From the NCBI RefSeq assembly GCF_004010195.1, contig NC_057753.1:6841960-6905959 (forward strand): 64,000 bases of DNA, given 5' to 3'. Positions 3,991 through 62,272 of the stretch are shown here, one piece after another. Positions within the stretch are counted from its first letter, which is position 1. Every line of letters begins with the position of its first letter. Under the pieces are notes generated by a model that saw only the letters and a list, made by a program, of their open reading frames with translations, ran no database searches and had not been told where the DNA came from. Position numbers and translations under genes: made by a program. The stretch comes from Chiloscyllium plagiosum. Taxonomy: Eukaryota.

Positions 3991-4019
3991 TCCATGAAGG
4001 ATTTTAGATTGTTATCCAA

Positions 4020-4470
4020 ACTGCTGAGTCACCAGTGAATTCACACTGGGGAGAAGCCATTCACTGCTCTGATTTTGTGAAGGTATTCACTCAGTCTTCG
4101 CAGTTTCTGGTATGACAGTGAGTTCACACTGAGGAGAGGCCTTTCACCTACTCTGTGTGTGGAAACAGGCTTGACTGATTCATCAACCCTGCTGGCACAC
4201 CACTAACATAACACCAGGCAGAAATCATTCAACTGCTCTCAGTGTGGGAAGGAATTCACTCCCTCATCCAGCTTCCTGATACACCGGCAAATACATGGCG
4301 GGTGGAAACCATTACCCGGCTCTGACTGCAAAAAAGGCTTTCATGTTTCATGAAATGTGCTATGCACCAGTGAGTTCACGCTGGGGACAAAATGTTCACT
4401 TACTCTGTGTATGGGAAGGGATTTGTTTGGTCACCAATCCTGTTTAAACACCAGTGAATTCACAAAGACC
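4020..4470 (+). pseudogene. Decayed C2H2 zinc-finger array (about 5 fingers, with stops and frameshifts)
   Basis: Repeated cacactggggagaagccattc and tgtgggaagg units; several cag-TGA-(g/a)ttcac stops where HQRxH is expected. Confidence 0.85.
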
Positions 4471-8200: not shown

Positions 8201-8489
8201 TGTAGGAGCACGTGCCTGTAGATGCTGCCACCCCCAAGGGCCCATGTCTTTGGCCAATAGTCTTCCCCTCGTTCCCAGAAGCCTCTTCGCCCAGCTCCAA
8301 CACTCCCATCCACCCAGATCCCTCTGCTAGTGGCCTTTTACCTCCACTCCATCCATTTGTTCAGAGCCGTCGGCGTGACTTTGGTCGCCTCAATTTCATT
8401 GCCCTGCTGCCTCACCACCTCTCTCCATTCCCCCACTATTCCCCCGTTTCCCCCTTCCCTCCCCCTCGCCCCTCTCCTCCCCCTTCCCT

Positions 8490-8785
8490 CCCTGGGTAAC
8501 CGCTTCTCAGAACACTCACATCCCGTTCGCAAAAAAGATCCTGAACTTCCAGTTTCTTGCCAATTAATTCACCACCGTTTACACCCTGGCCAAAATCTGT
8601 GTCTGAGGCTTACTGTGGTGCTCCAGCACAGTTCCATGCAAGCTGGAAGAACAGTATCGAGTTTAATAACTTTAGGGCTTGAGCTGTCCCATGTCCCTAC
8701 CCCAATGCCGAGAACCAGGCTTTGTTATCACATGCGCAAAAACCGAAGTTGGTGGAAAAGCTGGGCAGGTCTGACAGCATCTGTG
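8490..8785 (+). mobile_element. Penelope-like element relic (GIY-YIG C-terminal region)
   Basis: Translates LGNRFSEHSHPVRKKDPELPVSCQ, resembling the R..EH helix of PLE endonucleases. Confidence 0.6.
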
Positions 8786-8789
8786 GTAG

Positions 8790-10222
8790 TATTCGGCCTC
8801 AAGCTCAGTGACCAGTGGTGTTCTGCAGGGTTCTGTTCTGGGATGAGGAAGTGTAAGGGTGGATTAGTAAGTTTGCCAATGACGCGAAGGCTAGTGAAGG
8901 TGTGGTTCGTGTCGAGACTGTTGTATGTTGCAATGGGACATTGACAGGATGCAGAGCTGGGCTGAGAAATGCCAGATGGAGTTCAAAGTGTGAAGTCATT
9001 TGCGTTGGAAGGTTGAATTTGAATGAGAATTACAGGGGTAAGGGCAGGATTCTTGGCAGTGTAGAGGAGCAGAGCGATCTTGGGGTCCATGTCCATAGAT
9101 CCCTCAAAGTTGCCACCCTACTTGCTCGGGTTGCTAAGAAGGTGTATGGTGTGTTGGCTTTCATTAGCAGGGGGATTGACTTTAAGAACCACAAGGTTAT
9201 GCTGCAGCTCTGTAAAGCCCTGTTTAGACAACACTTAGAATATAGTGTTCAGTTCTGATCGCCTCATTATAGGAAAGATGTGGAACCTTTAGAGAGGGTG
9301 CAGAGGAGATTTACCAGGTTGCTGCCTCAACTGGAGGGCATGCCTTATGAAACAAAGGTTGAGGGAGCGAAGAAGGATGAGAGGTGACTTGATAGAGGTA
9401 TGTATAAGATTATGAGAGGCATAGATAGTGTGGATAGCCACAGACTTTTTCTTCTGGTGGAAGTGGCTATCAAGAGGGGCTACAATCTTTAGGTGTAGGG
9501 GAGCTGTCTGAGGTAGGTTTTGGGAGAAAGTGAGGACTGTAGATACTGGAGATCGAAGTAGAGAGCGTGGTGCTGGAAAAGCACAGTAGGTCAGGCAGCA
9601 TCAGAGGAGCAGGAGAATCGATATTTTCGGCATAAGCCCTTCATCGCCTCTACACCCAGCTCCATCCCAGGTCCTAGCTCCCAGCCTGCCATGTCTTCAC
9701 TATTCCTCCAGACTTCACTGAAGATGAACGTTTAGTCCTCAGCAAAGACCTCCCCTTCATCCCTCTACGTTCCCGGATTAATGAGTTCGACATGAATTGC
9801 AACCTTCGCCTGCCTTCGCCTCTGAGCCCACTTTATAAATCAAGACTCCTGTCCACCAACGAGGACCCCTTCTTTTGCCTCCGACACCACCCCATCCACC
9901 TGGACACCTCGTACTGGCCTGTTACCCACCCTCAATTAATTCCTGATGAAGGGCCTATGCCCAAAATGCCGTTTCTCCTCCTTCTCGAATGCTGCCTGAC
10001 CTGAGGTAGGTTCTTCACACAGAGGGTGGTGGGTGTGTGGAATGCACTGCCAGCTGTGGTGGTAGAGTTTGATACATTATGGACATTTAAGAGACTCTTG
10101 GATAGACACCTGGATTATAGTAAAACGAAGGGCATGTCTGTCATTTTGATCTTAGAATGGGATAAAAGGTTGGCACAACATCGAGAGCCAAAGTGCCTGT
10201 ACTGTGCAGTAATGTTCTATGT
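8790..10222 (+). mobile_element. CR1 LINE 3' part, interrupted by a PLE at 9520-10000
   Basis: RT C-terminus (DLGVHVHRSLKVA, LEYSVQF); gttctatgtt tail. Confidence 0.9.
9520..10000. mobile_element. PLE derivative: inverted terminal repeats around an N-terminal ORF relic
   Basis: TSD CTGAGGTAGGTT at 9508-9519 and 10001-10012; hammerhead-like ctgatgaagggcctatgccc near 9943. Confidence 0.75.
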
Positions 10223-25800: not shown

Positions 25801-26768
25801 TATAGAAACCGTCAGTTTCTGTCCAGTAAGTACTGCGAGTGCCCTGAACGTTTCTGTACTGTCTGATCAATATTTCACCTGGGTCTGGGTCTTTTAGCGA
25901 TGATTTGAATTTGATTTCCTCCAGTTACTGAGTCACTGACTGTTGAAGACATTCCATTTCACAGAACCTTCTCGTTGGAAACTCGAATTACATCAGGGAA
26001 AGAGGCACGATCTGGCTGTTAGTTACAACATAAACCTGAACCACAGTGAGAGGCGAATAGAATAGATTCTCATGTGTCATGCTTATAATTGTGAAACATG
26101 AGAAATAACAGCAGGCAGAGGAATTCAGGATTATTGAGAAAATGACTGAAGTGAAAAGGAAGTATTTCACCATGGTTGTGAGCAGTGTTGTCCAGACTCT
26201 GACACTTAGCAATGGAGTGGTTTGAAGCAGCTAGCAGATAGGAGTTTGTAGTGAGGCCAATGTCTTCTGTCTTGCCAATATTTAAATTTCTGCTCGCCCA
26301 GTTGAGATATCAGACGTGTCAGGAATGTGTGTGATTGGGAGGTGACATTGTTGATATCAACCTCCGAGTCCGGTCTTTCTGGGTGGTAGAAGTTGTTCGG
26401 TTCTGTCAAAGTTCTGATCAATGTCCCTGTCCGTCTCCTCCTGCAGAGACGAAACGCTAGTGTTGGCCCGGACTGAGTGGCAGATTCCCATCACTGAAGG
26501 ACAGCAGTCAACTAAATGGGTTTTTGTTACAATCCAGTAGGTTACACGGTCAATTTTTCCCAGTGTCAGCCCCACACATTACCAGATTCATTCAGCTCCA
26601 TTTCAGAATTGTTAATCGTGTTTTTTTTTGATGTGGGTTTTCTCTCACCCCTTTTCTCTTTCATAGATCAAGTCACAGGAAGCTGGAAGGTTTGCATCCA
26701 GTAACATTGCAACAGGATTGACAGAGTCATCCGTTTTATCTTAACCTGAACATCGACGGAGTTTGAAC

Positions 26769-28130
26769 ATGGAAGAGAAGAACACCAGTCCCAGTGCGGA
26801 GGGATCACGGGAAGGTGGGGATGGTGGAAAGGAATTGAGTCCCATGTCTGAGCTGGAATCTCATCAACACAGTCACACAGGGAAGAAGCCATTCATCTGC
26901 TCCCAGTGTGGGAAGGAATTCACTGAATTATCCAACCTCCTCAGCCACCAGCACGTCCACACTGGAGAGAAACCATTCAAATGTCCAGACTGTGGGAAGT
27001 GCTACAAATGTTCCAAGGACTTGGTGTCTCACCAACGTGTTCACACTGTAGAGAGACCGTTCAAGTGCTCTCACTGCGGAACTGGGTTCAGGTTGCCATC
27101 GCAACTGACTGTACACCAGCGGATTCACACCGGGGAGAGGCCGTTCATCTGCTCTGAGTGTGGGAAAGGATTCACTCGGTCGTCTGACCTGCTCAAACAC
27201 CAGCGGGGTCACACTGAGGAGAGACCGTTCCGGTGCTCCCACTGTGGGACTGGTTTCAAGCAATCGTACGATCTCACCGTGCACCAACGAATTCACACTG
27301 GGGAGAGGCCGTACTCCTGCTCCGAGTGCGGGAAGGACTTCACTCGTTTGTCCAATCTGCTCAGTCACCAACAAGTTCACACCGATGAGAAACCTTTTAA
27401 GTGTCCAGAGTGTGGGAAGGGCTATAAAAATTCATGGAAACTGAAGTCCCATCAACGTGTTCACTCTGACGAGAGACCGTTTCGATGCTCTGACTGTGGG
27501 ATGATGTTCAAGCGATCATTTCAACTCACTGTTCACCAGCGCATTCACACCGGTGATGGGTTATTCACCTGCTCCAAGTGTGGGAAGGGATTCACTCAGT
27601 TATCCAATCTCCAGTCACATCAGCTAGTTCATACCGATGAGAGGCCTTTTCAGTGCACGGACTGTGGAAAGAGTTTTAAAAGTTCTGCAGGACTGATCCG
27701 TCATCAACGTATTCACTCTGATGAGAAACCGTTCATGTGTTCTCAGTGCGGAGCGAGGTTCACACAGTCATATACTCTCACTGTGCACCAGCGAGTTCAC
27801 ACTGGGGAGAGGCCATTCACCTGCTCCGAGTGTGGGAAAGGATTCCGTCGAGCATCCAACCTACTGGAACATCAGCGGGTTCACGCCACGGAGAGACCTT
27901 TTAAATGTTCAGCCTGTGAGAAGAGCTTCAAATGTGCCCGGGACCTTATGTCCCATCAGTGTGCACCCGCTGAAGCGACACCCTTCAGATGCTCTCATTG
28001 CGCGCCTGAGTTGGAGCAGTCATCCCAGTTCTCTGTAGATCAGCGACTCCACACTGAGCAACAACTGTTTATCTGCTCCGAGTGTGGGAGGAGTTTCACT
28101 CCATCATCCAAATTGCTGACACACGAGTGA
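26769..28130 (+). CDS. Tandem C2H2 zinc-finger protein, 453 aa: 12 canonical and 3 degenerate fingers, no effector domain visible
   Basis: Uninterrupted ORF with TGE(K/R)P linkers; ATG at 26769 in an aacATGg context; polypyrimidine tract and AG acceptor at 26665-26666; AATAAA at 28510-28515. Confidence 0.9.
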
Positions 28131-45729: not shown

Positions 45730-45962
45730 GAGCTGAAAATGTGTTGCTGGAAAAGCGCAGCAGGTCAGGCAGCATCCAGGGAACAGGAGAATCGACGTTT
45801 CGGGCATAAGCCCTTCTTCAGGAAGCCCTTCCTCATTCCTGAAGAAGGGCTTATGCCCGAAACGTCGATTCTCCTGTTCCCTGGATGCTGCCTGACCTGC
45901 TGCGCTTTTCCAGCAACACATTTTCAGCTCTGATCTCCAGCATCTGCAGACCTCACTTTCTC
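45730..45962. mobile_element. Young fold-back PLE-terminus element with perfect 95-bp inverted arms
   Basis: Arms 45730-45824 and 45836-45930; TSD CCCAAAGATAGATGA at 45717-45731 and 45963-45977. Confidence 0.92.
45835..45870 (+). ncRNA. Minimal type-I hammerhead ribozyme motif (mirror copy on the minus strand at ~45790-45825)
   Basis: CUGAAGA-A-GGGC-UUAU-GCCC-GAAAC-GUC; predicted cut after 45866. Confidence 0.75.
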
Positions 45963-46553
45963 CCCAAAGATAGATGATGAAGACATCTGATAAACATCAT
46001 GAGATTATGGGAGGACCTAGGGCAGTCCGTCGAGTTGCCATCATTGATCATGGATTGTATGTACAGCTTAGGGGAATGTGGCTAACAATGACATCAATGT
46101 TGCATGTCATTATTATAACGAAGGGTATAAAAATATATTTCACTGGGGAGCTCAGTGGCTTTCCGATCTGAGCTGTGATTAAGAGGGCAATTAAGCCCCA
46201 TGTGAAAGGCAGATTTGGGGTGTCTCTGGCTTCTCCCACAAATGTGGCAATAGAACTCTAAATAAAGGCCACTTTGGCGAAGAAACGCAGAACTTAAGAC
46301 TCGTCTTTGGTAGGCAAATCAAAGGTAAATCTAAGATTACAAAGAGGTATTGGTCAACGAGGTGAGGAGTGGGAGAGGGTTTAATTTTGTTAAGTGTGAG
46401 TTAAGGATATAAAGATAGAACATACAAATTATTAGTAGGGCCTGGATAGTGTTGTATAATAGAGAGACCTAGGGGTTCAGGTACATAATTCTTTGTAGTT
46501 TGTATCACAGCTGGTTAAGAAGGGGTTTAGTATGCTTGCCTTCATTGTTCAGT

Positions 46554-46783
46554 GTTGAAACTTTATTGCTGGAACAGCACAGCAGGTCAGGCAGCATCCA
46601 GGGAACAGGAGATTCGACGTTTCGGGCACAGGCCCTTCTTCAGGAAGCCCTTCCTCATTCCTGAAGAAGGGCTTATGCCCGAAACGTCGAATCTCCTGTT
46701 CCCTGGATGCTGCCTGACCTGCTGTGCTGTTCCAGCAATAAAGTTTCAACTTTGATCTCCAGCATCTGCAGACCTCACTTTCT
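46554..46783. mobile_element. Young fold-back PLE-terminus element with 93-bp arms
   Basis: Arms 46554-46646 and 46658-46750; TSD CCTTCATTGTTCAGT at 46539-46553 and 46784-46798. Confidence 0.92.
46657..46692 (+). ncRNA. Minimal type-I hammerhead ribozyme motif
   Basis: AUUC-CUGAAGA-A-GGGCUUAUGCCC-GAAAC-GUC-GAAU; 4-bp helix I. Confidence 0.8.
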
Positions 46784-48229
46784 CCTTCATTGTTCAGTCC
46801 CTTGAGTACAAGAGTTGGGAAGTCCTGTTGCGGTTGCAGAGGACATTGCTGAGGCTTCTTCTGGAGTACTGTGTGCAGTTCCAGTCTCCTGTTGAAGAAA
46901 TGATATTGTTCAACTGGAGAGGGTTGAGAAAAGATTTTGCGGCATGTTGCCTGGAGTAGACTGAAAAGGCTGGATTTTTTTTTTCCACTGGAGCGTAGGA
47001 GGTTGAGGGGTGACCAAATTGATGTTTATAAAATGAGGGGAATAGATTAAGTGAGTAACAAAAGTCTTTTCCCTTGGGTGGGTGACTTCAAAACTAGGGA
47101 AGCACATTTTTAAGGCGAGAGGAAATATTTTAAAAAGGAAAGGAAGGGTATTTTTTTTTAAACAAGGTGATTCATGTGTGAAATGTGAGGGAGAAGTGGA
47201 TGTATGCCCGGTCGTAATGTTTATAAAAGACATGTTGATAAATTTACACCAATGGGAAAGTTTTGGAGCTGTATGGGCCAAAAGCAGGCAGATGGGACCA
47301 GTTTAGTTTGGGAACATGGTCGGCGTGGGCTGGTTGGACCGAAGGGTCTGTTTCATGCTGTATGACTGTGAGAGAGTACAGCTGCAATGGGCTGAATGGA
47401 CCTCAACCCCAGTGCTCTGTGATACTGTTCCATTCACTGTGAATGGTGAAGCTCATCCCAGGGCAGGGAGAGAGAGGATCCCATCACTTACCTCACAATG
47501 GGGCCCAGCTGATTGACAGGTGTATGCATGCACAGGTTTCCTAATGCAAGGGGAGTGCTGCTGGGGTTTGAGGATTCGAATGCAGCCAATTTAAACCAAG
47601 GTAAATGATTGTCATTTCGAGGTTTCTGCTTTGGACTGACAGTACATTTTCGTGAACTTCTTTTGCAGGATATTAATTGAGAATAATTTGCACTCCAGGA
47701 TCTCAAAACACGTTCTGACAGAGTCAGCAGAGCCATCAGGACCTGAATATTATTGGCGTTTACTGTGGAAGGAAAAAGGTTTGTCTATGGGAAAAATATT
47801 TCCAAAATGGTTGTAATTCAAAACACAGCAAGTTGTTCAGGCTCCTGTGTCTGGGCCCTGCAGCTGAGGAAGGAGATATTGCCTTGACGGGGGCCGGGGC
47901 ACAGATTTATACAGGTAACACCTCATCTCTTGGGACAAACTGTTATATTTACTCCCAGTCTCACACTTCACGATTAGAGCCTATAAGTTTCTCATTGTCT
48001 AAAGAGCTGCAAATTCCCATTTTTAAATTTGTTATGAATTTGCAATCCAGCACCCCTTCTGCTGGGATGTTCCAGATCCCGACAACTCTCTGTTGATCCA
48101 GAAACTGCAGAATTCTGTGTGAAGTCTGGAGGGTTATTAAGGGTTATATTGAGAAATGGGAGACTCTTCCCCGAGCTCCCATGGAGCTTCACTGCACGAG
48201 TCAGAGTGGTCCCTGTGAGTGCTGCTTCG

Positions 48230-50904: not shown

Positions 50905-51815
<911 letters not shown>

Positions 51816-54469: not shown

Positions 54470-55600
54470 TCAATGGCACCTTGATCAGATGTGCCAATGG
54501 GCTAAGGAATGGTTGATGGAGTTTAGATTGGATAGATTTGAGCTATTACATTTTGCTAAGGCAAACCAGGTAGGAATTATACAGTCAATGGGAAGGCCAT
54601 GGGCAGTGTTGCTGAATAAAGAGACCGAGGGCAGCAGCTGCGTATTTCATTGTAAGTAGATTTGCAGGTAGACAGGGTAGTGAAGAAGGCGTTTGGCACA
54701 CTTGCCTTCATTTGTCAGTGCACTGAGTATAGCAGTTGGGGTGTTTTGTCGCAGCTCTAATAGACATTGGTCAGGCCTGTTTTAGAATACTGCTTTAAAT
54801 TCTGGTCTCCTTGCTATGGAAAAGATGTTGTTAAACATGTGAGGGTGCAAAAATAATTCACAAGGGTGTTGACAGGATTGGAGTGTTTGAGATATTGGAA
54901 GAGGCTTGGGCAATTTTTTCTCTGGAATGTCGGAGGCTGCTTTATAGAGGTTTATATGATCATGAGGGCAATTGATAGGGTGAATAGCCAAGGTCTTTTT
55001 TATGGGGTAGGACTCCAAAACGAGTGGGTATAGGTTTGATGCCATTCCTGAAGAAGGGCTTATGCCCGAAATGTCGATTCTCCTGTTCCTTGGATGCTGC
55101 CTGACCTGCTGCGCTTTTCCAGCAACACATTTTCAGATCTGATCTCCAGCATCTGCAGTCCTCAGTTTCTCCTTGAAGATTTTAACCTACTGCGACTCCT
55201 CTTGCAAGGATGCCTTCCTTGAAGAAGCTGTCTTCCTCCCTCTCCTGAAGAAGGGCTTATGCCCGAAACGTCGATCCTCCTGTTCCTTGGATGCTGCCTT
55301 ACCTGCTGCACTTTTCCAGCAACACATTTTCAGCAGAGGTTTAATGTGACAAGGGTAAGATTTGAAAGATTTGACCTCGGGCAACTTTTTCATGCAGAAG
55401 GTGGAACCAGATGCCAGAGGAGTTGGTGGAAGTGGATACAATTACAACATTTAAAAGGCATCTGGCTGGGTAGATGAATAGGAAAGTTTTAGAGGGATAT
55501 GTGCGAAATGCTGGCAATTCGGACTAGATTAGTTTAGGATATCTGTTGGCACAGAAAAGTTGGACTGAGAATCTGTTTCCATGCTGTATAACTCTTACTA
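54470..55600 (+). mobile_element. CR1 3' fragment interrupted by a tandem PLE terminus
   Basis: RT C-terminus and 3' UTR. Confidence 0.8.
55042..55336 (+). mobile_element. Direct-tandem PLE termini with two hammerhead motifs 197 nt apart
   Basis: CTGAAGA at 55048 and 55245; TSD AGGTTT(G/A)ATG at 55032-55041 and 55337-55346. Confidence 0.85.
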
Positions 55601-56346
55601 TCTCTGTAAATTCCCCGGTCCCTGCAACAGTACCTAGCTCTGTAATTTTCTCCAGCCTGTAACCTGTTCCAGCCCCAGCATAACTTGCTTTCTATGTAAT
55701 CTAGTCCAGAGTCACAGTCCTCCCTATCAGTGTAACCTCATCCAGCTTCACAACCCTCCCCTACCTCTCTGATCCCCCACAGCCTCACAATTCTCCCTAT
55801 CTCTAATAACACCTCCCCCCCCCTCCAAACCTACAGTTTCACAACCTTCCCTATCTCTCTAATTTCCTCAACCTCAGAGCCCTGGTTATTTGTGTAACAA
55901 CTGTCCAATTGCAGAATCATCTCTGATGTTAGATAATGTGTTGTAATTTTTTGAAGTGCGAGCTAGTTGGGATGCCTTGTTTCTTGTGACCAGTTGGGGA
56001 GACCTGCTGCTTCCGATATGATGTCTCTCTTTGAGATGTATGGAGCCGAAATCTGGTCTCACGCTGACACTGACATGCCACATTACACATTACTGTGAGA
56101 AACAGAACATTGTCCTGTTCTGGCAAAGAACATGTACAGGGCACACTCAACTGATGGGAACTGGGGAGGCAGTTCAAGAACTTGGACAGTGTACTGGGAG
56201 ACAGCATGTTGATACTGTCTGGTGTTAGTGAGCTGTGGGATGGGTATTGACCAGTACCAAATCCCTCCACCCTCCCCCATCCTCACTCGTGCTCTTACTC
56301 TGCTGCACACCAGCTGGTGGAGATAGGTGACAAGTTTGTAAGTTGT

Positions 56347-56815
56347 CGTGGTTGTGTTCGCCGAGCTGGGAATTTGTGTTGCAGACGTTTCGTCCCCTGA
56401 CTTGGATCTCAGCAATTGATGGTGGTCAAATGTAGGTCAGCAATATGGAAACTGTCAGAAATCAAGGAGCACTGGGTTCCGGTTGTCAGTTCCAGCTGTC
56501 CGCTGCAGTGGCCGGTATGTTGGGTCCAGGTCGATGTGCTTATTGATTGAATCTGTGGATGAGCACTATCAATAAGCACATCGACCTGGACCCAATATAC
56601 TGGCCACTGCAGCGGACAGCTGGAACTGACAACCGGAAGCGGCAGATACAAATCACTATAAATGCTGGAGGAAACATCACAGAAGCGCTTCACATGAGGC
56701 TCCCAAGCACTGAGGATGTCACCTAGACAGGGGACGAAACGTCTGCAACACAAATTCTCAGCTCGGCGAACAGAACCACAACAACGAGCACCTGAGCTAA
56801 AATCTTCTCCCAAAC
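56347..56815. mobile_element. Fold-back PLE of a different family carrying the ORF C-terminus
   Basis: TSD TTTGTAAGTTGT at 56335-56346 and 56816-56827; reading frame INKHIDLDPIY...STEDVT* on the + strand. Confidence 0.85.
56707..56746 (+). ncRNA. Minimal type-I hammerhead ribozyme motif
   Basis: GCA-CUGAGGA-U-GUCACCU-AGAC-AGGGGAC-GAAAC-GUC-UGC. Confidence 0.8.
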
Positions 56816-56925
56816 TTTGTAAGTTGTATTATCCTGTTTAAGACATCTCCTGCACAGACATGGTCATGACCTTCATGGGTCCAGTTCAGAGCTATACTTG
56901 AAGTTCCTCAGAAGCAGTTTCTCTC

Positions 56926-57715: not shown

Positions 57716-58374
57716 CTGTCAGTCTCTGGAATCTCCTACAACCTCACAACCTTCCATGCACCCAGTGCTCCTTGATTTCTGACAGTTTCCATATTGCTGA
57801 CCTACATTTGACCACCATCAATTGCTGAGATCCAAGTTGTCTCTCCTCATTGAAGATCTTAAGATCAACCTGTTTGGCCATGTGTGAACTGTTGTGCAAG
57901 GTTTTACAGTTCTGTATAAATACAAGTCATTGATGTTACCTGCAATGGTCAATCTCAACAAGATGACAGACCAAGCTTGTGTCCACTGAAGTTCAGAAGA
58001 GTTAGAGGTAACTTGGTTTAGACTGAGGGGACTTGACCATCCACAGTCAGACGAAATCTTAATGAATCACAAAGCAGGCTCGATGGGCCAAATGGCTTAT
58101 TCCTGCATCTATCTCTTATTTTCAGCCATAGCGATTCAAGCACCCCATGCCCACAACTCTCAAAGGGGCCCTGTTCATCTAAGCTTGACAATTCCAAAGA
58201 TGTGCAGGTTAGCTGAATTGGCCATTCTAAATTACCTGAGTGTTAGGTGCACTAGTCAGGGTTTAAATGTAGAGTAATAAGAGACTCAACTGCGCAATGC
58301 AGGATCAGGAGTGTGAGGCAACCGTGTCATCAAATGTTTTGGAGCTGCCCTTTCTGGTAGCTACAGTGCTCCTG

Positions 58375-59759: not shown

Positions 59760-62272
59760 GGAGGAGCCGGTGTTGGACTGGGAAGTACAAAGATAAAGAT
59801 CACACAACACCAGGTTACAGTCCAACAGGTTTATTTGGAAGCACTAACATTCAGAGTGCTGCTCCTTTAGGTGGCTGTGGAGTACAGCCACAAGGCACAG
59901 AATTTACAGCAAAAGATTACAGTGTCATGCAACTGAAATGATGCATTGAAAGAAAACTTAGATTGCTGTTAAGTCTTTCATCTTTTAGAATGACCATGTT
60001 GTTTTCAGTTCTTTCATATATAAAACCCAGAACCTTCTTTGAAGTTGCATTCTCAAATGAACTTTAACAAAAGCTGCCATATCAGCCCAGATAATGCACT
60101 GAATGTGTGAGTCTGCCTGTACCTCAACGTTCAGATTGGTTCTAATCTAAAAAAGGGATTGACAGAATCTTACATGGATTTGTGCAGTTTTTGAGCAAGA
60201 TAAAATGTAATTCTGCAAGTACAAATTCACCCCACTAACCTATATGTTGTGTGTGGATGTGGATATGTGTGTGGGGGGGAGGGGGGAGGGGGGGGGAAAG
60301 GGTTATAAGGCTGTGAGAAGGTGCATGTGGGAGTGTATGTGTGAGCATATGAGAGAGAGCTTATGTATGAGAGAGGGTCTGTGTGCGTGTGTGCATCTGT
60401 AGGTGTGTGTGTGTAGGAGTGTCAATGTCTATGTGTGTATAGTGCAGTGGGGTCACCTATAGTGTGATATGGACTCAAGGTCCCGTTTGAGGCCATCCTC
60501 ATGGGTACCAAACTTGGCGATCAACTCTGCTTGGACACTTTGCACTGTTGCTCGTTCCGAAGTCCATCTTGTAGGATGGTCAACCGAAGGTCCGAGGCCG
60601 AATGTCTCAGACCGCTGAAGTATTCTCCGACTGCGAGGGAATACTCCTGTCTGTTGATTATTATGCAGTGTCCATTCATCCGTTACCGTAGCCTCTGCTC
60701 ATTCTCACCAATGTACCATGCCTCAGGGCACCATTGCCTGCAGCATATGAGATAGACAACGTTGGCCAAGTCACATGAGTACCTGGCAAGTACATGGTGG
60801 AAGGTGTCCCCACATGTAATGGTGGTATCTGTGTCAACACTCCGACACATCTTGCAGCGTCTACCAGAACAAGGTTGTATGGTGATTTCCTGAAAGCCGG
60901 AAAGTTTGCTGTGAACAATGATCTGTTTGACGTTTGGCGGTTGTTTAAAGTCAAGAAGCGGAGGCGTGGGGAAGGTCTTGGCAAGGTGCTCATCCTCATT
61001 GATAATGTGTTGCAGGCTGCAAAGAACATAGCGTAGTTTTTCGACTCTTGGGAAATACTGGACAACGAAGAGTACCCGGTCGTTTGCAGCTCCTGTCTGT
61101 CTCCTGAGGAGGTCGTTACGCTTTCTCACTGTGGCACATCGGAACTGGTGGTCGATGGGTTGAGCATCGTACCCCATTCTTATGAGGGCATCCTTGAGTA
61201 CCATCAGGTTCCTGTCAAGTTCCTCCTCATCTGAACAGATCCTATGTATGCGTAGTGCTTATCCGTAGGGAATGGCAGTTTTAATATGTTTAACGTGCAA
61301 GGTGGAAGAGTGTAGTATTGTGAGGTTATCTGTGGGTTTTCGGTAGAGTGAGGTGCTGAGGTCCCCATCCTTGATGGAGATGCATGTGTCCAAGAATGAT
61401 ACAGATACTAGAGAATAGTCCATGATGAGTTTGATGGTGAGAAACTCTGTGATATCACTGTGTAGTTGTTTCAGTGTCTCCTTGCCATGGGACCATAGGA
61501 AGAACATGTCATTGATATACCTGGTGTATAGTTTTGGTTGGAGGTCCTGCATATAGAATAAGTCTTGTTTGAACCTGTGCATGAAAATGATGGCATATTA
61601 GAGTGCAATTTTGTTTCCTCTGGCTGTTCATGCCACACTACAGGTGACCCAACTGCACTACATATGTGTGCACACACACTCCTACAGACCCATAAGCTCA
61701 CGCAGACCCTCTCTCATATACAAGCTCTCTCTCATACACTCACACACGCACCCTCTCACAGTCACTCATACCCCCCTGCATGCACACACCCACATGCACA
61801 CATATTTAAGTTTGTGAGGTGAACTTGTACTTGCAGAATTACATTTTTATTTTGCTCATAAACTGCATGAATCCATGTAAGATTCTGTCAATCCTTTTTT
61901 TTAAGATTAGAAACAGTCTGAACATTGGGGCACAGACAGCCTCACACAGGGCACCTCACACCTTTAATGCATTATCTGGCCAACATGACCCCTATTGTTA
62001 AAGTTCACTTCAGAAGGTAACTTTAAGAAAGTTCTGGGATTTAGATATTAAAAAAACTGAAACCAGCATGCCCATTCTGAAAGATGCAAGACTTACCAAA
62101 CAATTTAGGTCTTTTTCAATATATAATTGCAGTTATATCACACTGTAAACCTTTCCTATAAATTCTGTGTCCTACAACTTTATACTCCATAACCACCTGA
62201 TAAAGGAGCAGCACTCCGAAAGCTAGTGCTTCCAAATAAGCATTTTGGACTATAACCTGGTGTTGTGATTTT
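59760..62272 (-). mobile_element. Truncated Penelope-like retroelement: RT C-terminal half and GIY-YIG, between inverted pseudo-LTRs
   Basis: TRYINDMFFLW, FLDTCI, LYRKPTD, PCSGRRCKMC and NVVYLICC...WYIGE; 59760-60480 is mirrored at 61625-62272. Confidence 0.92.

Follow-up and report, generated by a model that had tools for sequence, protein, structure and literature searches.

Penelope-like retroelements produce insertions of a recognizable form. According to three accounts (PMC8557442, PMC3846280, PMC11167929), the units of endonuclease-bearing elements contain 5'-truncated tandem copies, carry a tail of 30–40 bp at one end only, are bounded by a target duplication, have the pseudo-LTR toward the ORF start, and derive from an apparently uncut template. 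The hallmark of the group in two of them is the combination of partial tandems with a neighboring inverted copy and a 30–40 bp tail at one end (PMC8557442, PMC3846280). The third states that the tail marks two start sites of reverse transcription and that the template of the anole element was uncut in vitro (PMC11167929).

Pseudo-LTRs of metazoan Penelope-like elements contain hammerhead ribozymes (Cervera and De la Pena 2014, PMC4209133). These have a loopless palindromic helix III, an unpaired base before stem II, a G-C closing pair and a short stem I of 4–5 bp; they occur as thousands of dispersed copies and as pairs 100–700 bp apart, the close pairs being on opposite strands. The text and supplements searched name no shark, and the supplements searched contain neither shark elements nor the motif. 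Non-LTR retrozymes, in two further sources (Cervera and De la Pena 2020, PMC7229834; Li et al. 2026, bioRxiv 10.64898/2026.07.22.740005), have direct type I hammerheads 150–450 bp apart, a G+C content <50%, a target duplication >4 bp and a proposed origin from pseudo-LTRs. Described retrozyme RNAs are highly self-paired (PMC7229834). Li et al. (bioRxiv 10.64898/2026.07.22.740005) also admit minimal motifs as retrozyme ribozymes. Apart from one cartilaginous fish in that preprint, the literature covered, in which subscription papers were thinly represented, held no hammerhead-bearing Penelope-like ends in sharks.

The window analyzed here, 64,000 nucleotides of the Chiloscyllium plagiosum genome, contains an insert at 55043–55334 with two direct hammerheads. 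The insert resembles the metazoan Penelope-like pseudo-LTRs of PMC4209133 in helix III, unpaired base, closing pair, short stem I, dispersed copies and spacing; it differs in that the pair is direct rather than on opposite strands and has a stem I of 2 bp. It shares with the endonuclease-bearing units the truncated tandem copies, the one-ended tail, the target duplication, a pseudo-LTR that probably leads toward an ORF start, and the apparently uncut template. Unlike those units, it has no ORF body between the copies, each of which breaks off at the hammerhead front. It is like the non-LTR retrozymes in its direct type I hammerheads, spacing, G+C content, duplication and pseudo-LTR origin, but has neither two full units nor a homogeneous repeat, and its ribozyme is minimal rather than canonical.

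Structure of the insert

The insert is ~293 bp long, equivalent to 1.46 units of 197 nt. It lies within the remnant of a LINE, which we take to be CR1-like, whose left part occupies 54900–55031 (+) and whose right part occupies 55347–55480 (+). The two flanks, joined at the duplication, form a sequence to which 6 further copies in the window align through the joint (66–72%). The 10-bp target-site duplication reported in the initial annotation was present with one mismatch (55032–55041 and 55337–55346, both +); counted from 55030 it comprises 12 bp with two mismatches. An 8-bp duplication ending at 55037 was discarded in favor of this 10–12 bp version ending at 55041.

DNA runs X1, X3 and X13, from three coded organisms, were compared with positions 54920–55460. 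One X3 contig tracks the left flank up to 55041 and then departs, and one X13 contig starts at 55337. Copy 1 of the pseudo-LTR (55043–55137, +) begins 5 nt before its hammerhead core and matches the family copy at 45834 from the first base. Its front flank is native, 5/5 nt being as in that copy, and loose contig ends were found before 55043 in runs X1 and X13. Copy 1 is followed by an optional tail of ~36 nt (55138–55173, +), which was delimited by the arm ends of siblings and by piles of loose ends in the three runs. Past the tail the native family sequence continues (55174–55243, +), with an ATG at 55210; this continuation was covered in 3/3 DNA runs. In X13, two contigs track it up to 55243, beyond which they carry 186 and 14 other letters. 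The continuation meets the front of the second hammerhead at 55243–55244 (+), where T55243 fits both sides. Copy 2 (55244–55334, +) begins 2 nt before its core, is tail-less and ends at the short 3' end of the family.

The two copies have 91 bp in common (55046–55136 and 55243–55333) at 95.6% identity, with 4/90 compared positions differing; the bases that distinguish them are at 55072, 55276, 55300 and 55310. In the flanks before the cores 2/6 nt differ, these 6 nt being the only informative ones. The stretch not common to both copies is 107 nt (55137–55243), made up of the ~36 nt tail and 70 nt of continuation, so the spacer of ~90 nt beyond the terminus in the initial annotation was too short. 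The possible ORF start noted there does exist as the ATG at 55210, but in this insert it opens just 12 codons before the TGA of core 2. Judging from published layouts, 55174–55243 is likely the 5' UTR and ORF start of the element.

Three private changes, A55137, C55196 and C55276, stand against 97–99.9% of the depth in the DNA runs. They point to neutral decay of the insert. Today the insert is likely inert.

The hammerhead pair

Two same-strand hammerheads 197 nt apart had been proposed from the sequence, and both proved to have complete cores. The CUGAAGA cores lie at 55048–55054 and 55245–55251, both on the + strand. Each motif is a minimal type I hammerhead in which a single unpaired A precedes a stem II of 4 bp, which has a G-C closing pair and is followed by GAAA. 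Hammerhead 1 spans 55048–55075 (+), with stem II at 55056–55067, GAAA at 55068–55071 and a helix III that includes T55072. Hammerhead 2 spans 55245–55272 (+) and has a palindromic ACGU helix III. In both, helix III is loopless and the site is UC; the predicted cuts are 3' of 55075 and 55272. The description of these as loopless motifs that need a partner was borne out.

T55072 places one U-G pair in the dimeric helix III, as the initial annotation had anticipated. A C-to-T change within a CpG gave rise to this pair; across the family, T is common in that position. This single change cost hammerhead 1 its palindrome. The pseudo-LTR traits of an unpaired base between 9 and 10.1, a G10.1-C11.1 pair and a palindromic 15.2–16.2 were all found, with the palindrome lost in copy 1. 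In the dimer both cores are intact and 4/4 pairs of helix III are possible, including the U-G. When the two are paired in cis, stem I is 2 bp in each ribozyme: its inner 5' strand was lost at the junction, and an outer pair was broken by the private change at 55276. Stem I has 4 bp in the copy at 46661, and a U-U mismatch in the copy at 45839.

The exact motif pattern occurred 7 times in the 64-kb window compared with 0 in 100 shuffles. Therefore the pattern did not arise by chance; nor is it special to the 55048/55245 spot. Rfam at the gathering threshold matched 0/4227 families over the whole window, and scans of metagenome contigs and viral contigs with the exact pattern yielded 0 loci.

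The family in the window and in related genomes

The family is a mass repeat. Contigs matching 54920–55460 numbered 88,373, 61,722 and 74,355 in the three DNA runs (of 23.7, 35.4 and 36.0 million records), and one unit used as a blast query found 24 pieces in the 64 kb, itself counted. In 6/6 sibling inserts examined the arms are oppositely oriented, the duplications are 12–16 bp, and one arm has a tail. Measured from the core, sibling arms reach either +88 to +92 or +125 to +134, and in 3/3 DNA runs loose ends pile up behind 55129–55136 and 55172–55173. The two classes of arm ends together with these piles indicate that the tail of ~36 nt is optional. Two traits of pseudo-LTR units, a one-ended 30–40 bp tail and truncated copies in both orientations inside a single duplication, were found.

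Nine other arms in the window begin 2–5 nt before the core (three of these at the limit of the query). The family arms start ahead of the core rather than at the predicted cut; this suggests either a template RNA that begins there or an enzyme that stops there. Among the 15 joints listed (of 236), 7 link 55044–55059 with 55243–55250 on opposite strands, and 9 in all are on opposite strands. X13 also contained apparent direct joins, 55169 to 55243 (one contig) and 55172 to 55246 (three contigs). A direct join in X1 runs from 55240 to 55043 with 30 letters between and a depth of 79; its break is 3 nt from 55243. Another X1 joint, at a depth of 1804 and so far above the other listed joints, leads from 55261 to 55043 over 10 intervening letters. 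It may represent a short multi-copy unit belonging to the family.

Two palindromic inserts (45730–45971 and 46553–46787) belong to different subtypes and lie 0.6 kb apart, yet have the same letters at the inversion center; each has a perfect 15-bp duplication. Downstream of the insert, 56320–56830 is an inverted pair of another hammerhead-bearing family, with a core at 56710 and a longer stem II. A near-perfect palindrome occupies 56440–56640, and 56400–56477 is repeated exactly at 57760–57837 on the opposite strand.

Relationship to a Penelope-like protein

No reverse transcriptase or GIY-YIG ORF was present in the insert (55043–55334). The link to a protein came from a sibling at 9523–10003, which is 83–85% alike and has a piece of ORF inside one duplication. 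By tblastn this piece matches whale shark P0025 (E 1e-15), and P0025 itself aligns with residues 183–256 of P0019 (E 1e-8). P0019 is a reverse-transcriptase protein of 943 aa with RVT_1 at 456–595, and was found with the other Penelope-like fragment of the window. By way of the 83–85% sibling and the two alignments, the family appears, indirectly, to belong to a Penelope-like ORF. The clade may be Neptune-type.

The sibling at 9523–10003 consists of a 12–14 bp duplication, an inverted tailed arm, a ~300-bp piece of the N-terminal Penelope-like ORF, and a hammerhead front. At 9939 the ORF-internal piece is joined directly to the hammerhead front, which gives a second case of a jump that led from within an ORF to a ribozyme front.

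Protein searches and a HMMER scan gave no N-terminus for the family. One of these searches returned four matches, three to unrelated repetitive or long proteins, which were dropped on those grounds, and one to a whale shark protein of 171 aa that is without an N-terminus. The best 11-residue alignments to 22 proteins scored 15–24. Tblastn of 22 proteins against 9640–9945 and 8380–8720 found nothing, atlas searches for the family N-terminus gave no usable match, and Pfam identified no family at a useful level in three fragments of the window.

The other Penelope-like fragment (60459–61627, −) is a 5'-truncated reverse transcriptase plus GIY-YIG with few stops. Within it, 60683–61258 (−) is 74% identical to proteins of Chiloscyllium punctatum (bamboo shark) and Hemiscyllium ocellatum (epaulette shark). 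The hammerhead pattern scan had no match behind this fragment.

Origin of the insert

We consider it probable that the locus is a one-off insertion of ~293 bp in which two Penelope-like pseudo-LTR end-pieces were joined through one template jump of reverse transcriptase. Directly visible are the two copies, the duplication, the one-sided tail, the break at 55243/55244 and the private substitutions. The direct joins with varied breakpoints in X1 and X13 and at 9939 speak for jumps. The tail-less 3' end at 55334 would have served as the priming site of reverse transcription, and the enzyme would have copied as far as the front edge of the hammerhead, the usual stop of family copies. It would then have jumped onto RNA ~34 nt past the ATG, and copied back through leader, tail and hammerhead to a second stop at the front edge (55043). 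The junction sits at the usual copying stop, since nine window arms and 7/15 of the joints listed fall at the core front. The template RNA would be uncut, because neither copy has lost any of the core, which lies upstream of the cut. That both copies start before the ribozyme and not at the cut site fits the uncut RNA template described in PMC11167929.

At a single locus a template jump is not distinguishable from a later deletion, and the parts follow one another here as they do in a full element. A longer insertion, made up of pseudo-LTR, ORF and a further pseudo-LTR, may have lost its middle, from the pyrimidine-rich ORF start to the front of the 3' hammerhead. T55243 fits both sides of such a break and both sides are C/T-rich; internal microhomology deletions are known in rotifer Penelope copies (PMC3846280). 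The exact microhomology is just 1 nt, however, and the break hits the stop point of most sibling arms, which a chance deletion need not do. We regard such a loss as unlikely. A low-copy, non-autonomous mini-element with the same junction, moved in trans by a Penelope-like enzyme and with no need of cleavage, is quite doubtful. Non-autonomous pseudo-LTR units have been described (PMC8557442, PMC3846280), and the X1 break at 55240, 3 nt away, may mean that this zone is a favored joining point. There was no second copy of the 55243/55244 junction in the 64-kb window. Among the 24 pieces listed (of 230,030) 0 cross the junction, 2 end there and 2 begin there, and none ties flank to insert, so that the locus itself is not among them, although this is a weak test of the uniqueness of the junction.

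Comparison with retrozymes

The initial annotation read the pair as a retrozyme-like unit, in which a + strand transcript folds as a double hammerhead and frees a 197-nt RNA that may circularize. Geometrically, a cis dimer that yields a 197-nt product is possible: neither core is damaged and, with the one U-G, all four helix III pairs are available. The unit size (197 nt), the G+C content (49.7%) and the duplication (10–12 bp) are within the published ranges of 150–450 bp, <50% and >4 bp. Minimal hammerheads cleave weakly as dimers (PMC4209133), and the Li et al. preprint proposes an origin of retrozymes from pseudo-LTRs and assigns retrozymes to one cartilaginous fish (bioRxiv 10.64898/2026.07.22.740005). 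A + strand transcript is conceivable, given a frameshifted zinc-finger exon upstream (~50950–51800, +), but four poly(A) hexamers lie between this exon and the insert.

The other observations oppose that reading, which we hold to be highly improbable. A retrozyme has at least two consecutive units in a tandem repeat, each with a complete hammerhead. There are just 1.46 units here, and TRF with the settings of a published vertebrate retrozyme screen (2 7 7 80 10 50 1000) found 0 arrays in 54500–56000. The flanks before the two cores are unlike, to the extent that 6 informative nt can tell, so the unit is not homogeneous. A circular template of 197 nt is unlikely as well, since a circle would give an equal flank before both cores and 2/6 nt differ. 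The traits of a canonical type I ribozyme, a 6-bp helix I and a capped helix III, were absent, helix III being loopless and stem I 2 bp. Across the dimer stem I amounts to 2+2 bp compared with 4+4 bp in the 46661 copy and 4–5 bp in the consensus (PMC4209133). The pair probability of helix III was 0.0000 in the full-length fold. The 197-nt unit folded like shuffled sequences, with a linear z of −0.42 and 63/200 shuffles equally stable; the circular 197-nt fold had a z of −0.20 and was 51% paired. In the Li et al. preprint, 8/9 Xenopus dimers were without cleavage (bioRxiv 10.64898/2026.07.22.740005). One RNA run placed 0 of 8.3 million reads on this stretch, a result that carries no weight for or against a linear or circular RNA.

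The two-strand double hammerhead lay 4.9 kcal/mol above the monomers compared with 2.1–10.2 for siblings, so the pair is not set apart. A separate folding-energy argument, by which a forced double hammerhead costs 20.7 kcal/mol in the full-length RNA, was set aside as it was without a matched control.

The insert departs from retrozymes in how many units it has, in their homogeneity, in the kind of ribozyme and in its fold, and it behaves like any truncated Penelope-like insertion. The alternative named in the initial annotation, a one-off truncation product, fits best with the unit number, the flanks, stem I and the fold. The pair might still be viewed as a snapshot of the birth of a retrozyme. 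The jump would have set two minimal hammerheads 197 nt apart, the cis double hammerhead would release a small, possibly circular RNA, and in a genome so rich in stumps accidents of this kind would seed new retrozyme families continually. We consider this very unlikely.

As it stands the insert belongs to a very large number of stumps left by a known kind of element, and matters little. A single locus here illustrates the passage from pseudo-LTR to short direct tandem that Li et al. (2026) put forward for the origin of animal retrozymes. Were the pair to cleave, the many spacings and stem I variants in shark genomes would form a large natural series for tests of how a Penelope end becomes a retrozyme.

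Other features of the window

C2H2 zinc-finger array exons were present on the + strand, with an open frame of 461 aa at 26745–28130, the frameshifted exon at 50950–51800, and a remnant at ~4000–4200. CpG-rich patches at 7.0–8.5, 32.5–33.5 and 58.5–59.5 kb may be promoters of zinc-finger exons.
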